Below, in pieces: positions 44,645-49,093 of a DNA stretch of 64,000 nt. The position numbers were made by a program, and so were the translations under genes. Origin of the DNA: a virus (lineage: Duplodnaviria; Caudoviricetes); IMG/VR virus record IMGVR_UViG_3300043418_000375, positions 1,426 to 65,425 of that record, one strand, 5' to 3'. The stretch's first letter is position 1. Each line of letters starts with the position of its first letter. The notes beneath the pieces are model-generated. The model did not search any database. It saw only the letters and a list, made by a program, of their open reading frames with translations, and was not told the origin of the DNA.

Positions 44645-45238
44645 ATGGCCAATACTTTGCTTTTGAAGCGCAGCGCGGTTGCAGGGCGCGCGCCGGTGCT
44701 TGCGGACCTTGTCCTCGGCGAGCTTGCGGTCAACGTGACAGACGGAAAGCTATATCTCAAGAAAAGCACGAGCGGCGTCGAGAGCATCGTCGATGTCACG
44801 GCTGGTGGCATGACCGATGCCGAACTCTTCGCCAAGGTGACCGCGCAAGACGGATCTGGTTCTGGGCTGGATGCCGATCTACTTGATGGCACCCAGGCCA
44901 GCGCCTTTGCGCAGCTCGCTGGGGCGACCTTCACTGGCACGGTCACAGCCCCGAACTTCGTCTCTTCGTCCGACGCGCGGCTCAAATCCGACATCGCCCC
45001 GATCCCGGATGCGCTGGCCAAGGTGCAGGCACTGACCGGCGTCACCTTCCGGATGGCCGGATCGGATACCCGCCAGATGGGTCTCATCGCACAGGAGGTG
45101 CAGCGGGTTGCGCCAGAAGCTGTGGTCGAGGCCGAAGGGGTGCTGCGCCTCGCTTACGGCAATCTCATCGGGCTCCTCGTCGAGGCCATCAAGGACCTCG
45201 CCCAAGAGGTCGATCAGCTGAAAAGGACCACCCCATGA
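44645..45238 (+). CDS. Short fibre protein with S74 intramolecular chaperone
   Basis: N-terminal LKRS...GELAVN.TDGKLY; DG.GSGLDADLLDG; SSSDARLKSDI...GLIAQEV. Confidence 0.85.
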   Translation: MANTLLLKRSAVAGRAPVLADLVLGELAVNVTDGKLYLKKSTSGVESIVDVTAGGMTDAELFAKVTAQDGSGSGLDADLLDGTQASAFAQLAGATFTGTVTAPNFVSSSDARLKSDIAPIPDALAKVQALTGVTFRMAGSDTRQMGLIAQEVQRVAPEAVVEAEGVLRLAYGNLIGLLVEAIKDLAQEVDQLKRTTP

Positions 45239-46137
45239 TCGCGAGCGGGCTTTATGCCATCACCCATTGCGGCGTACCGCGCCATTACGCGGTCGATGTC
45301 AAACCTGACTATGTCTCCGTTGCCGTCTTCGAGTTCGCAAACCCTGGCACGGCAACGGGTATGGGCGGGGTCATGCTCTGGGCAGATCTTCTGCCGCATC
45401 TCGAGGCGCGGCCTGCCTTTGGCAGTCAGGCCGGATTTGTCGACCTCGTTCATAACGAATGCTTTGTTCCGGATCTTCCCGGCGCGCCGATGGGGGCGAT
45501 TTACAAGGGCCGCTCCTGCCTCGTTGCCGGTGGCATGCGCGGACATGACGAGTTGGTCGATCACGCGCTGATCGACATGGCTGTCGGCGCCGACGGGCGG
45601 CCGCTTTCCTGGCGCAATCGCTTTGCCCGCTCCGCGCGGGAGAAGATCGACACCTCGTTCCGGTACCGGGCACGCGAAGGCATCTCGAATGCACTCGTCG
45701 TCTTTCTGCCGGTGGTGGTGCCCTTCGATCAGGCCCGGATCGAGGTTCTCTGTCAGATCCCGCCGATCCTGCTGAACGGCACGGTACAGATAGGCGAAAT
45801 TGACGATGCGACGATCCCGAAGGACGGGCTCTGGTACAAGCAGTTCTACTTCCACGCCTTGGGCCCAGAGGCGGCAACCGTGCCAGCCGGTGGGCGAGTG
45901 GATCTGCCTGTGGCACTCAAATGGAACGCGGACGGCTCCGCCTTTGCCCATGCCGTCGCGCTGAAATTGGAAAGCGACGCGGGCTATCTGCCAAAACGCC
46001 GCCTCCTCACTTCTGCTGACGGCACGGGCAGCTTTGCCATCGAGGCCTCGGGGCTCGCCTCGGGCGACCGCATCACCGTCAAACTCAACACCGAGCATTA
46101 CACTGCGATCGGCAAGATCGTGTTGGAGGTCATCTGA
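45235..46137 (+). CDS. Hypothetical protein, 300 aa, with a beta-rich (Ig-like?) C-terminus
   Basis: Coupled on both sides (ATGA, TGATG). Confidence 0.8.
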   Translation: MIASGLYAITHCGVPRHYAVDVKPDYVSVAVFEFANPGTATGMGGVMLWADLLPHLEARPAFGSQAGFVDLVHNECFVPDLPGAPMGAIYKGRSCLVAGGMRGHDELVDHALIDMAVGADGRPLSWRNRFARSAREKIDTSFRYRAREGISNALVVFLPVVVPFDQARIEVLCQIPPILLNGTVQIGEIDDATIPKDGLWYKQFYFHALGPEAATVPAGGRVDLPVALKWNADGSAFAHAVALKLESDAGYLPKRRLLTSADGTGSFAIEASGLASGDRITVKLNTEHYTAIGKIVLEVI

Positions 46138-46877
46138 TGGAAATTCCGACCACGAGTGACTTGCAGCTGATCTATCCAAGCTTCGTGCTGCACAAGCACT
46201 GGCAGATGCCTGAGGGCTTCAATGACCGCCTTTACGCGCTGGCGGCTGAGGATGCCGCGGCCCATCGCATCCAGAATGCGGGGGATGGCCGCAATGTCGG
46301 CGATACGACCAATCATCTCGGGCATCTGCGGCATAACTTCCTGATGGACCGGCAGGACCCGGCCCTCGCGGTACTGGCGCAAATGGTCGCGGCTGGCGTG
46401 CGGGAATATCTGCAACTGGCCTATGGCTATGACCATACCGGCGACATCGCCATGATGTCGGACACCTTCTGGCAGCGCAGGTCGTTGCGCGAGAACGTCG
46501 GCATCAACACCCACACCCATATCCAGAGCGACATCGTCTGCACCTATTACCCGCGGGTGGTGCTGGATGCCGATTGTCCGGACACCTCGCTGCATCGTGG
46601 AGCGGTGCGGTTTTATGATCCGGCCAATGTCGGCAAGCGGCTTTGGCCCTGTCGCAACCCGGACGCCTACACTGGCGGTTGGTATGCGGTCGAGCCCAAG
46701 GCGGGGTCCATGCTCGTCTTCGAGGGGCATCTTCCCCACGACAGCACGTTCTTCGCGGGGGAGGAGCGGATGTGCATTCCGGTCCTCTGTTCGCTCACCC
46801 TTCCGAATTCCCATTGCAAGGCCGGGCTCGCCGAGATCCTGGCCCATCAGGCACAAGGAGGCGGCCATGGCCTATAA
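46137..46877 (+). CDS. 2OG-Fe(II) oxygenase (TIGR02466-like)
   Basis: HTH...YY...F.DP...P.AG.MLVFEGHLPH......R DSBH pattern. Confidence 0.78.
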   Translation: MEIPTTSDLQLIYPSFVLHKHWQMPEGFNDRLYALAAEDAAAHRIQNAGDGRNVGDTTNHLGHLRHNFLMDRQDPALAVLAQMVAAGVREYLQLAYGYDHTGDIAMMSDTFWQRRSLRENVGINTHTHIQSDIVCTYYPRVVLDADCPDTSLHRGAVRFYDPANVGKRLWPCRNPDAYTGGWYAVEPKAGSMLVFEGHLPHDSTFFAGEERMCIPVLCSLTLPNSHCKAGLAEILAHQAQGGGHGL

Positions 46878-47181: not shown

Positions 47182-47183
47182 AA

Positions 47184-47810
47184 ATGGAGGTTCGCAGCAC
47201 GCGCCTGGAGCTCTGGCCGACCCGGGTCAGTTTTTTTGAAACCCCCGTCGATTGGCCGGTAAACCGGCAATTGGCCGATGAAGCCATTGCCACTGTCGCG
47301 CACCGGGGCGCGCGGCTTTCTGCGGCCGAGCGGCGGGTGCGGGGCATCCTTGAGAGAAGCGCGGCTGGCCAGTCCCTGAAATCCCATCTCTTCGCCTGTG
47401 CGCGTGCCGTGCTTGGTCCCTGGGCGCCCTATCTCGATCCCCACCATTGCGAAAACCGTGCCCTCGTCATCGAGCCGGGTGGGTTCATCTCGACCCACAA
47501 GGACAGCCGCGAGGGGGATCTCACTTGCGTGCACTTCCTGACCGGCGGTGGGGCGGGGCAGTCGGTGAACTCTGTCGGCACCCCGCGCTTCGTGGTCGAG
47601 GATCCGTCGCGGTATTTTGACGAGGGACGGTTGCCGTTTGAGAGCCGCCATGGCTTCTCGGTCAATCCGCGCCCCGGGCTCTCGATCTTCTTCCCCTCCC
47701 ACATTCCCCACAACCAGCACCCCTATGAGGGCAGCACGCCGCATGTTCAGGTCGTCGCGAACTTCCGCGTCAATCTGCCTGTGGTGATCGAAGAAAGGCT
47801 ATTTGACTGA
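47184..47810 (+). CDS. 2OG-Fe(II) oxygenase
   Basis: HKD (HxD)...EDP...PRPGLSIFFPSHIPH...NF. Confidence 0.78.
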   Translation: MEVRSTRLELWPTRVSFFETPVDWPVNRQLADEAIATVAHRGARLSAAERRVRGILERSAAGQSLKSHLFACARAVLGPWAPYLDPHHCENRALVIEPGGFISTHKDSREGDLTCVHFLTGGGAGQSVNSVGTPRFVVEDPSRYFDEGRLPFESRHGFSVNPRPGLSIFFPSHIPHNQHPYEGSTPHVQVVANFRVNLPVVIEERLFD

Positions 47811-49093
47811 TGTGGTTTGATTTGACGCTGGAAGCGCGGGATGGCAGCCGCCATTCCGTCCGCTACAACCCGCACAGCTCGGACTGCGAGGGGCTGCCGC
47901 TGCCGGTCGAACCGGGCATCTTCGCGCCCGTGCCGCGGGTGGCCAAAGACAAGCCCCTCGGAAAATCCCGCGCACCCCGTATCCTGAAAATCCAACTGGG
48001 GCTGTCGTGCAATTATGCCTGCAGCTATTGCAGCCAGGCCTTCCAGATTGCGGATGCCACGGTCTCGAAGCTGGCGGATGTCGAGTACTTCCTCACCCAG
48101 CTTGACGGCTGGATAGCCGACGCCCCGGAAAAGATCGAGCTCTGGGGCGGGGAGCCCTTCCTCTACTGGGCCAAGATCAAACGGTTGGTGCCGGCGCTGG
48201 CGGGGCGGTTCCCCAAAGCGGCCTTCTTCATCATCACCAACGGATCACTGCTCGACCGCGAGAAGCTCGACTTCATTGCCGCGCATGACATCGCCATCAC
48301 GATCTCGCATGACGGGCCAGGCCAGCATCTGCGCGGGCCGGATCCGCTTGATGATCCGGATAAGCGGCGTTGGATCGAAGCCCTGCTGGCAGAGCTACCA
48401 GACAAGACCGGGTTCAACGCGGTGCTGACGCGCGCGCATCACGATCTTCGGGCGCTGAAGGCCTGGTTTGCCGAAAAGGTCGGGCCGGATATCGTCGTCG
48501 GGCTTGAGGGCGTGGTGAATGTCTATGATGCGGCGACGGCGCTTGGGACGGGGCGGTTTGAGCCCTTCGAACTGAACAGCCTGACGCGGTCGATCTTCGA
48601 GGCGCTGGTTGAGGATCCGAACGCCTTTGGCCTCGGCGCGCGCATCGACGAATTCTACGCCTCGATCCGGCGCCGGCGGCCCATCGCGGCCCTTGGCCAG
48701 AAATGCGGGATGGATCGCGAAGATAGCATTGCCGTCGATCTGCGCGGCAATGTCATGACTTGTCAGAACACCGGGGCCAAGGGCGTGCACAAGATTGGGC
48801 ATGTCGCGGACTTCGAGGCCATCGCACTCGACACCGCAACGCATTTTGCCTTCCGGCCCGAGTGCATGTCCTGCCCCGTCGTTCAGCTCTGCAAAGGGTC
48901 CTGCATGTTCCTTGAAGGCGTGTTCTTCGCGCAAAGCTGTGCCAATGAGTTTGCCTTCAATATGGGGGTCTTGATGGCGGCCGTCTGGCATTTGACAGGA
49001 ATGGTGGTGGTGGGAGTGGACGTCACGGGCCGGGGTGGACCAACCGGAAGCGCCGGGCGCCTCGACGGTAGAGCTCACAGGTCCGGCCCGTGA
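47810..49093 (+). CDS. Radical SAM protein with SPASM domain
   Basis: CNYACSYC (CxxxCxxC), WGGEP, ITNG, ISHDG; C..GNVMTC..CMSCPVVQLCKGSC..C. Confidence 0.93.
   Translation: MWFDLTLEARDGSRHSVRYNPHSSDCEGLPLPVEPGIFAPVPRVAKDKPLGKSRAPRILKIQLGLSCNYACSYCSQAFQIADATVSKLADVEYFLTQLDGWIADAPEKIELWGGEPFLYWAKIKRLVPALAGRFPKAAFFIITNGSLLDREKLDFIAAHDIAITISHDGPGQHLRGPDPLDDPDKRRWIEALLAELPDKTGFNAVLTRAHHDLRALKAWFAEKVGPDIVVGLEGVVNVYDAATALGTGRFEPFELNSLTRSIFEALVEDPNAFGLGARIDEFYASIRRRRPIAALGQKCGMDREDSIAVDLRGNVMTCQNTGAKGVHKIGHVADFEAIALDTATHFAFRPECMSCPVVQLCKGSCMFLEGVFFAQSCANEFAFNMGVLMAAVWHLTGMVVVGVDVTGRGGPTGSAGRLDGRAHRSGP

Follow-up and report, generated by a model that had tools for sequence, protein, structure and literature searches.

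What would a radical S-adenosylmethionine (rSAM) enzyme of the kind that matures peptides be doing at the end of a phage tail-fibre operon? The question is raised by a 64,000-nt stretch of DNA (hereafter, the window; positions 1,426 to 65,425 of the IMG/VR virus record IMGVR_UViG_3300043418_000375), part of a 65-kb viral record that carries a lambda-like, marine-type prophage. In the window, a five-gene cassette (45235-49093, + strand) continues the fibre genes without interruption and encodes, in this order, a 300-amino-acid (aa) protein, a 2-oxoglutarate (2OG)-Fe(II) oxygenase (oxygenase 1), a 104-aa protein that ends in an alternating run of cysteines (the ladder protein), an oxygenase-like protein (oxygenase 2), and an rSAM enzyme with a SPASM domain. 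The original prediction, made from the sequence without database searches, had described five coupled genes following the fibre genes and a 104-aa product ending NCNCACRC-stop, and direct reading bears out both, down to every coordinate and junction. Here we report that relatives of this rSAM enzyme are near-universally encoded downstream of a gene for a cysteine ladder, and that such ladders also terminate undoubted tail fibres. From these comparisons, we consider it probable (roughly 0.6) that the enzyme has a virion fibre protein as its substrate and modifies the Asn-Cys ladder of that protein.

Pairing of the radical SAM enzyme with cysteine ladders

The window's rSAM enzyme was used to scan IMG/VR (74 loci) and one genome per species (64 loci), which, together with two phage records, gave 140 loci. 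The whole five-gene order is kept in about 45 of these, mostly in Rhodobacterales-type genomes, including those of Thalassovita, Phycobacter, Thioclava, Nereida and Thalassobacter, with rSAM enzymes that are 79-95% identical to the one in the window. Distant loci were defined by an rSAM enzyme less than 60% identical to the window's (34-46%), and a ladder was scored when a same-strand open reading frame (ORF) with a CxCxC or longer run ended no more than 4.5 kb upstream of the rSAM gene; rSAM matches with fewer than 250 aligned residues were excluded from this test. Where at least 1500 nt of upstream sequence was available, a ladder ORF was found in 46 of the 52 distant loci and 44 of the 48 close ones; with less than 1500 nt upstream, the counts were 2/8 and 0/4, respectively. 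As a background, ORFs of at least 40 aa located elsewhere in the same loci or on the opposite strand contain a CxCxC run in 28 of 9238 cases. Thus, the arrangement of the cassette is above chance, given that the five-gene order recurs across the close loci and the ladder-rSAM pairing extends to the distant ones.

For removal of redundancy, loci whose rSAM ORF reached 330 aa (104 of the 140) were grouped at 90% identity, resulting in 47 groups, 41 of which have at least 1500 nt of upstream sequence. A same-strand ladder gene is found upstream, within 7 kb, in 39 of these 41 groups, and the two others keep a shorter cysteine motif (...NCQCGN in Ralstonia phage RSP15 and a 92-aa ORF ending ACACGDCA in locus L040). 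A scatter of rSAM homologues unlinked to Cys-tailed proteins or fibres, the outcome that the original prediction had named as evidence against itself, is the opposite of this distribution. In 11 of the 41 groups, a fibre with an S74 chaperone is encoded directly upstream of the ladder gene.

The ladders contain 3 to 11 cysteines per run, separated mostly by N, A or D and less often by V, S, R, Q, Y or C, and are located at the stop codon, no more than about 24 residues from it, or immediately before a Hint domain whose first cysteine follows the run. They come in three forms. The first consists of small proteins of 61-180 aa with a terminal ladder, the type found in the window. The second comprises long fibres, such as those of L046 (726 aa) and L047 (622 aa), which start with a T7 tail-fibre N-terminal domain (E = 5e-20 and 3e-22, respectively) and in which collagen repeats and a CBM_5_12-like stretch precede the terminal ladder. 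In the third, fibres of 267-540 aa have a Hint domain immediately after the ladder. Hint-type domains were recognised in at most 8 of 31 scanned ladder proteins, through the models Hom_end_hint (8), Hint (3), Vint (2) and Hint_2 (1), with none in the window's protein, and several ladder proteins match PHROG tail-fibre families. Because Hint domains cut at their first cysteine, all three forms would end as a free C-terminal ladder, a convergence that we infer from the sequences. The earlier suggestion that the cassette tailors a fibre tip rather than producing a secreted peptide therefore gains comparative support, both from the linkage to ladder genes and from the ladders on T7-type fibres.

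A tblastn search of the cultured-phage collection with the rSAM enzyme returned 29 records, five of which cover at least 80% of the query, at 38-39% identity: Achromobacter phages JWF (two records) and 2-1, and Ralstonia phage RSP15 (two records). The JWF enzyme is 38% identical to that of the window over 83% of its length. In JWF and RSP15, the rSAM gene is internal to the tail-fibre block. Fibre gp028 of JWF (483 aa, annotated with a Hint domain) holds the run NCNCDCNCNCSC, and the start of its Hint domain, C-F-P-A-G-T, overlaps the last cysteine of the run. In RSP15, the protein with the NCQCGN end is ORF048, a 'side tail fiber', and the next gene, ORF047, encodes a relative of the 300-aa protein. 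The JWF module and the window share the rSAM family, the ladder and the tail-fibre setting. They differ in that the window's ladder stops at the stop codon of a stand-alone 104-aa protein, with no Hint domain after it, and in that the window adds two oxygenases and a 300-aa partner with an immunoglobulin-like (Ig) domain, the five genes forming a tightly coupled unit that is characteristic of Rhodobacterales-type prophages. Judged by gene content, the strict core is the ladder protein plus the rSAM enzyme, of which the window carries the richest version.

Some loci show further arrangements. In L028 (169-450), one of the loci behind the 39 groups, the ladder reads HVHVHVCTCTCTC (CTCTCTC...) and may not be a true ladder but the translation of a dinucleotide-type DNA repeat. 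Rhodospirillales-type loci (L072, L114, L116, L117, L119, L121, L122 and L132) have a fixed block consisting of a ladder-Hint fibre of ~400-540 aa, an unrelated gene of ~230-350 aa, the rSAM gene and a gene of ~200 aa whose product is oxygenase-like by hhalign (85% probability), with an additional gene of ~507 aa in most of them. Finally, L095, L101, L102, L082 and many short matches of L110-L140 contain truncated rSAM remnants or an rSAM gene without an upstream cassette, and look like decayed prophage ends.

Components of the cassette and their divergence

Table 1. Features of the fibre genes and the five-gene cassette (window coordinates)
Feature	Coordinates	Strand	Basis
546-aa tail-fibre protein	43002..44642	+	many PHROG tail-fibre and virion structural families, e.g. 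phrog_11518 E 7e-40
197-aa short fibre with C-terminal self-cleaving chaperone (Peptidase_S74)	44645..45238	+	PF13884 E 4.5e-16; PHROG tail-fibre families
300-aa protein (u300), predicted N-terminal beta-rich domain and C-terminal invasin/intimin-like Ig domain	45235..46137	+	AlphaFold2 model
246-aa 2OG-Fe(II) oxygenase (oxygenase 1)	46137..46877	+	PF13759 (2OG-FeII_Oxy_5) 29 bits vs 27; phrog_81 E 2.5e-8
104-aa fibre-like ladder protein, candidate substrate	46867..47181	+	alignment of 31 homologues
Asn-Cys ladder, residues 97-104 (NCNCACRC), extreme C-terminus	47155..47178	+	direct reading
208-aa oxygenase-like protein (oxygenase 2)	47184..47810	+	PF13759 16.5 bits, under cut-off 27; phrog_81 E 1.2e-5
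427-aa radical SAM/SPASM enzyme	47810..49093	+	PF04055 35.9 bits vs 29.5; phrog_1802 E 4.3e-52
CxxxCxxC motif of the rSAM enzyme (C67, C71, C74)	48008-48031	+	
Seven SPASM cysteines (C299, C318, C352, C355, C361, C365, C377)	within 48704-48940	+	

The genes of the cassette are coupled at every junction. The S74 fibre gene and the 300-aa gene share an ATGA overlap (45235-45238), the 300-aa gene and that of oxygenase 1 a TGATG (46135-46139), and the genes of oxygenase 1 and the ladder protein overlap by 11 nt (ATG at 46867, stop at 46875-46877), with AAGGAGG located 6 bases upstream. A 2-nt gap (TGA AA ATG, 47179-47186) separates the ladder gene from that of oxygenase 2, which is joined to the rSAM gene by another TGATG (47808-47812).

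An rSAM enzyme with a CxxxCxxC motif and a SPASM cysteine set had been predicted, and the domain models agree: in addition to the Pfam domain (Table 1), the enzyme passes the SPASM model TIGR04085 (31.5 bits, cut-off 27). Among 39 representatives, C67 and C71 are conserved in all and C74 in 38, and all seven SPASM cysteines, a set of the kind that carries two auxiliary [4Fe-4S] clusters, are present in 39/39, with the spacing C-x18-C ... C-x2-C-x5-C-x3-C ... C. The best NCBIfam matches are peptide or protein maturases, namely PapB, nif11-type, QhpD, HxsB and CcpM, which align for the most part over the rSAM core. None of the named families comes near its cut-off, with 60.7 bits vs 340 for the PapB-type ranthipeptide maturase model NF047865 (aligned only over residues 59-171, the rSAM core), 44.7 vs 453 for QhpD, 31.3 vs 425 for the SCIFF maturase (TIGR03974), and 29.5 vs 525 for the CrpC family (TIGR04463). 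The nearest solved structures are weak matches as well (E = 1e-6). The family itself is large, with at least 2539 protein clusters matching at E <= 1e-20.

The two oxygenases fared differently as predictions. In oxygenase 1, the expected HxH...H pattern is accompanied by a Pfam match above the cut-off, and H126, H128 and H201 are each conserved in 40/40 relatives, R211 also being noted; this three-His pattern differs from the usual His-x-Asp/Glu...His, which oxygenase 2 keeps. The HxD...H motif predicted for oxygenase 2 stands, with H105 and D107 conserved in 42/46, H176 in 46/46 and R195 in 43/46 relatives, and jackhmmer joins this protein to the family of oxygenase 1, but its own Pfam score falls short of the cut-off. 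No sequence relative of either oxygenase was found among solved structures at E <= 0.1. Known peptide hydroxylases hydroxylate Asn or Asp and, by analogy, the oxygenases may do the same; that the three-His site of oxygenase 1 points to thiol oxidation is speculation.

The alignment of the ladder protein with its homologues (31 sequences) has 22 invariant columns, every one of which falls within residues 1-29 or 97-104, the latter including N97, C98, C100, C102 and C104. The middle of the protein is hypervariable, with many substitutions, insertions and deletions, and occasional extra NC pairs. Complex prediction for the rSAM enzyme and the ladder protein, both supplied as alignments, gave a score of 0.00 against a mark of 0.32, which, the fold of the 104-aa protein being itself uncertain, counts neither for nor against an interaction. 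The co-variation of the ladder protein with the 300-aa protein (rho 0.53) was not above that of other pairs. In L032 (5639-6084), and also in L033, a 58-aa ORF resembling the N-terminus of the ladder protein is followed by a separate 85-aa ORF with the Cys-dense end CACVCACCCCCACCCNC, which represents either a split gene or two proteins. The ladder proteins of L050, L055, L058, L065, L066, L067 and L071 (122-137 aa) have a second, internal Cys-rich block (e.g. GNC..NCACN.CN.NCNC).

The 300-aa protein has no match in Pfam, NCBIfam or PHROG, and its architecture is derived from structure prediction. The AlphaFold2 model, built with 24 homologues, has a predicted local distance difference test value (pLDDT) of 90, and its residues 205-300 are predicted to form a Big_1-type invasin/intimin Ig domain (Z 10.1-10.3, rmsd 2.4-2.7, 89-91 residues aligned). 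This C-terminal domain alone was found when the whole model was searched with Foldseek and VIA-align. Modelled separately, the N-terminal domain (pLDDT 87) matches nothing clearly in the PDB, where the best hit was SPP1 gp22 (Z 5.3, rmsd 3.9, 108 aligned) and the others did not exceed 3.5, and in BFVD it matches uncharacterised phage proteins only; the ESM Atlas held no usable match for the protein, and no catalytic fold was recognised in the model. A profile search yielded 156 relatives, and the 120 listed contain no Pfam domain and are all named 'hypothetical protein'. Relatives identified by jackhmmer adjoin the rSAM gene, before or after it, in 24 of the 41 groups, and a profile built from them adds genes of 382 aa and 295 aa in four more lineages. 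We had regarded the 300-aa protein as a candidate universal core component; this was dropped, given that hhalign detected no relationship (probabilities 0.1-0.4%) to the genes that take its place in JWF, L044 and the Rhodospirillales-type loci. Its relatives fall into two identity classes with respect to the window, about 57-68% and about 80-95%, with few between, which suggests discrete allelic types.

The components of the cassette have diverged to markedly different extents. Across 26 distinct close loci/profiles, the median identity to the window's proteins is 88% for the rSAM enzyme, 86% for oxygenase 1, 83% for oxygenase 2 and 82% for the S74 fibre, compared with 59% for the 300-aa protein and 54%, the lowest value in the cassette, for the ladder protein. 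Conserved ends and a variable middle in the ladder protein, combined with conserved enzymes, would be expected for an exposed host-binding part served by cytoplasmic enzymes.

Candidate chemistry and competing explanations

We propose that the five genes together serve to mature the tip of a virion fibre. The 104-aa protein would be docked to the fibre through its conserved N-terminus and would expose its variable middle to the host, and the free C-terminal Asn-Cys ladder would be the substrate of the rSAM enzyme encoded two genes downstream. By analogy with characterized SPASM enzymes, binding of a ladder cysteine to an auxiliary Fe-S cluster would be followed by abstraction of a hydrogen from a neighbouring Asn, Asp or Ala by the 5'-deoxyadenosyl radical, giving rise to a thioether cross-link; repeated along the ladder, such thioethers would produce a compact tip independent of disulfides. 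The 2OG-Fe(II) oxygenases would be lineage-specific accessory tailoring enzymes, possibly acting on Asn or Asp, and the 300-aa protein a quickly diverging partner that either forms another surface component or, as a chaperone, presents the substrate.

Thioether formation is the leading guess because CrpC and NxxcB are characterized, but as a specific assignment it falls somewhat short of even odds. CrpC of Methanococcus voltae is a SPASM rSAM enzyme with three [4Fe-4S] clusters that installs ranthionine thioethers on the adjacent 29-kDa Cys-rich protein CrpA, as shown by mass spectrometry, and modification of CrpA goes further with CrpB, a third, adjacent protein (Dieter et al. 2026, PMC13692751). 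As presented in the text of that paper, the system resembles the window's in that a SPASM enzyme is encoded beside a Cys-rich protein, not a short peptide, whose cysteines are C-terminal and repetitive, and the 300-aa protein might, like CrpB, raise the extent of modification. The Crp system differs in being archaeal and cellular (the text of PMC13692751 contains neither 'phage' nor 'viral', its supplementary homologue list being outside this check), in the 17-residue repeats with C-X-X-Q/D of CrpA, as opposed to an alternating xC ladder, and in that CrpC possesses an RRE, the recognition element of enzymes that act on peptides made by ribosomes and modified after translation (RiPPs), and belongs to TIGR04463, which the window's enzyme fails; oxygenases and Hint domains do not figure in the system as that text describes it. 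According to the text of PMC9389541, NxxcB of streptococci forms a bond between a cysteine sulfur and the Asn beta-carbon, with Ala, Gln or Asp tolerated in place of Asn, a choice of acceptors that closely matches the residues between the ladder cysteines (N, A and D). In the same description, its substrate NxxcA is, however, a short secreted peptide with a single NxxC, encoded in a quorum-sensing-linked streptococcal cluster, neither structural nor of phage origin. QhpD and PapB-type enzymes, which are among the top NCBIfam matches of the window's enzyme, are SPASM enzymes that form Cys-Asp/Glu thioethers, and the QhpD substrate QhpC is a protein subunit (as summarized in PMC13692751). They differ from the window's enzyme in motif spacing and biological setting, in addition to the scores far under their cut-offs. 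The texts available for PMC2938197, PMC7159879, PMC12579225 and PMC12801897, considered as further precedents, proved irrelevant or merely loosely analogous, and a full-text literature search, with supplements outside its scope, returned no description of an rSAM enzyme acting on a phage fibre. SPASM maturases that act on Cys-rich proteins are already known, and what would be new in the proposed activity is its setting, the virion fibre tip.

Several observations weigh against this interpretation. The window's 104-aa protein has no match in Pfam, NCBIfam, PHROG or the tblastn search of cultured phages, so that its fibre nature is suggested by motifs and relatives. As the rSAM enzyme scores far too low for membership in any named maturase family, its chemistry is not assignable by homology; about 60 residues precede its core, too few, judged from length alone, for a standard RRE. 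The one-residue spacing of the alternating cysteines is unlike the thioether motifs C-X-X-Q/D and NxxC described in the cited texts. Neither the 300-aa protein nor the oxygenases appear essential to the core, because they occur in 24/41 and 16/41 rSAM groups, respectively. Finally, the phage blocks end with the cassette, next to a host RTX gene, and cargo genes typically occupy such a position too.

The closest competitor retains the ladder as the substrate and replaces the thioether by another radical reaction, such as conversion of cysteine to formylglycine or epimerisation of alternate residues, which we consider unlikely. The JWF enzyme has been deposited as an 'anaerobic sulfatase-maturating enzyme', and the window's enzyme matches the corresponding model, TIGR03942, about as weakly as it does the thioether maturases (34.3 bits vs 349.45, E = 1.4e-8), so that homology does not discriminate between the two. 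The sulfatase maturation motif, C/S-x-P/A-x-R, is nevertheless missing from the ladder and, even with all named families far under their cut-offs, the top-ranked matches are thioether or cross-linking maturases.

Alternatively, the ladder could be left unmodified and serve as a metal-binding, Fe-S-binding or disulfide zipper of a trimeric tip, with the rSAM enzyme linked to it in some other way, for instance through cluster delivery or an unrelated target. The cysteines of an alternating run would all lie on one face of a beta-strand, in much the way that iron is bound by His-x-His repeats in the long fibre tip of T4. The T4 tips share with the ladders the alternation of ligand residues, and Peptidase_S74 domains are, like the Hint-capped forms, C-terminal modules that cut themselves off after folding; enzyme-made covalent modification is not known for either. 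Metal binding has been suggested as a possibility for CrpA by the authors of the CrpC study, and characterized SPASM enzymes modify peptides or proteins (both according to the text of PMC13692751). No enzyme would be needed for a zipper of this kind, but 39 of the 41 groups pair the ladder with an rSAM gene, over siphovirus-, myovirus- and podovirus-type contexts, and we regard this explanation as quite unlikely.

A conventional RiPP or bacteriocin cargo at the prophage end, with the 104-aa protein as the long-leader precursor of a released peptide, would account for the conserved N-terminus followed by a Cys-rich C-terminal 'core', a layout reminiscent of leader and core, and for the location at the prophage edge; moreover, one homologue has a UniRef name beginning 'Nif11-like p...'. 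However, inspection of the ORFs and of the Pfam and NCBIfam matches revealed no transporter, protease or immunity gene in the cassette, as had been stated before; the same ladder terminates tail fibres of 400-700 aa; and the JWF and RSP15 genes are internal to the tail module. The supposed core is, furthermore, invariant and the middle hypervariable, the reverse of most RiPP families. A released peptide is, in our view, very unlikely. We find it scarcely credible that the targets of the rSAM enzyme and the oxygenases are nucleic acids or metabolites, as in DNA hypermodification or anti-defence, and that these genes adjoin the fibre genes by chance: phage rSAM enzymes do take part in thymidine hypermodification (PMC8989533, from the portion of the text available) and there is a weak viperin-type match (47 bits vs cut-off 180), but the ladder linkage is far above background, the SPASM domain is complete, and the cassette contains no nucleotide-metabolism neighbours. 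Against all these alternatives, the main argument is that enzyme and ladder are paired almost universally, in tail modules of siphovirus, myovirus and podovirus type alike, to which the presence of ladders on undoubted fibres adds weight.

Phage receptor-binding proteins are treated as plain polypeptides whose specificity can be read from the sequence. If rSAM enzymes do modify fibre ladders, widespread post-translational rewriting of fibre tips would be a hidden layer of host recognition, which could account for some fibres failing when expressed without their neighbour genes. RiPP-like chemistry would then extend from secreted peptides to virus particles, and the ladder would offer protein chemists a natural example of a very short, portable tag that undergoes radical cross-linking while attached to large proteins. 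The presence of relatives in cultured Achromobacter and Ralstonia phages makes the idea directly testable. A bolder version, which is rather unlikely to hold, is that the rSAM enzyme makes a covalently stapled, possibly metal-chelating fibre-tip 'warhead' that takes part in receptor recognition. This could come about through cross-linking of the three fibre chains or through formation of a metallophore-like knot that docks into an outer-membrane receptor. Host recognition would in that case depend on an enzyme-made, non-proteinogenic structure, with the 104-aa and 300-aa proteins setting the specificity and the enzymes staying constant.

The prophage around the cassette

Pfam searches identified in the prophage a gpA-type terminase, a lambda-family portal, an S49 protease, capsid protein E, a lambda-type tape measure, a Phage-tail_3 host-specificity protein and a 219-aa fibre with a Peptidase_S74 chaperone, the latter being followed by a LydA-type holin and a peptidoglycan-binding lysin. 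The second fibre module, which leads into the cassette, consists of a 123-aa ORF, a 75-aa collagen-like ORF, the 546-aa fibre and the 197-aa S74 fibre; the gene of the 546-aa fibre is syntenic in close loci. On the 3' side, the cassette is followed by a 360-nt spacer and a host gene for a 3539-aa RTX-repeat protein (49455-60074, - strand), which likely marks the end of the prophage.

A scan for terminators and promoters found sites no more numerous than in shuffled sequence. Among the sequencing runs listed by a search, none was on record as RNA, and two metagenome runs contained 0.25 and 0.08 of the sampled words. ARAGORN predicted a 92-nt tRNA-Thr at 40668-40759, within the 310-aa lysin ORF (40285-41217), which is probably false. 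The lysis genes are separated from the second fibre module by a UPF0149/SEC-C-motif (YecA-like) gene on the - strand (41624-42307), which may be a cargo gene.

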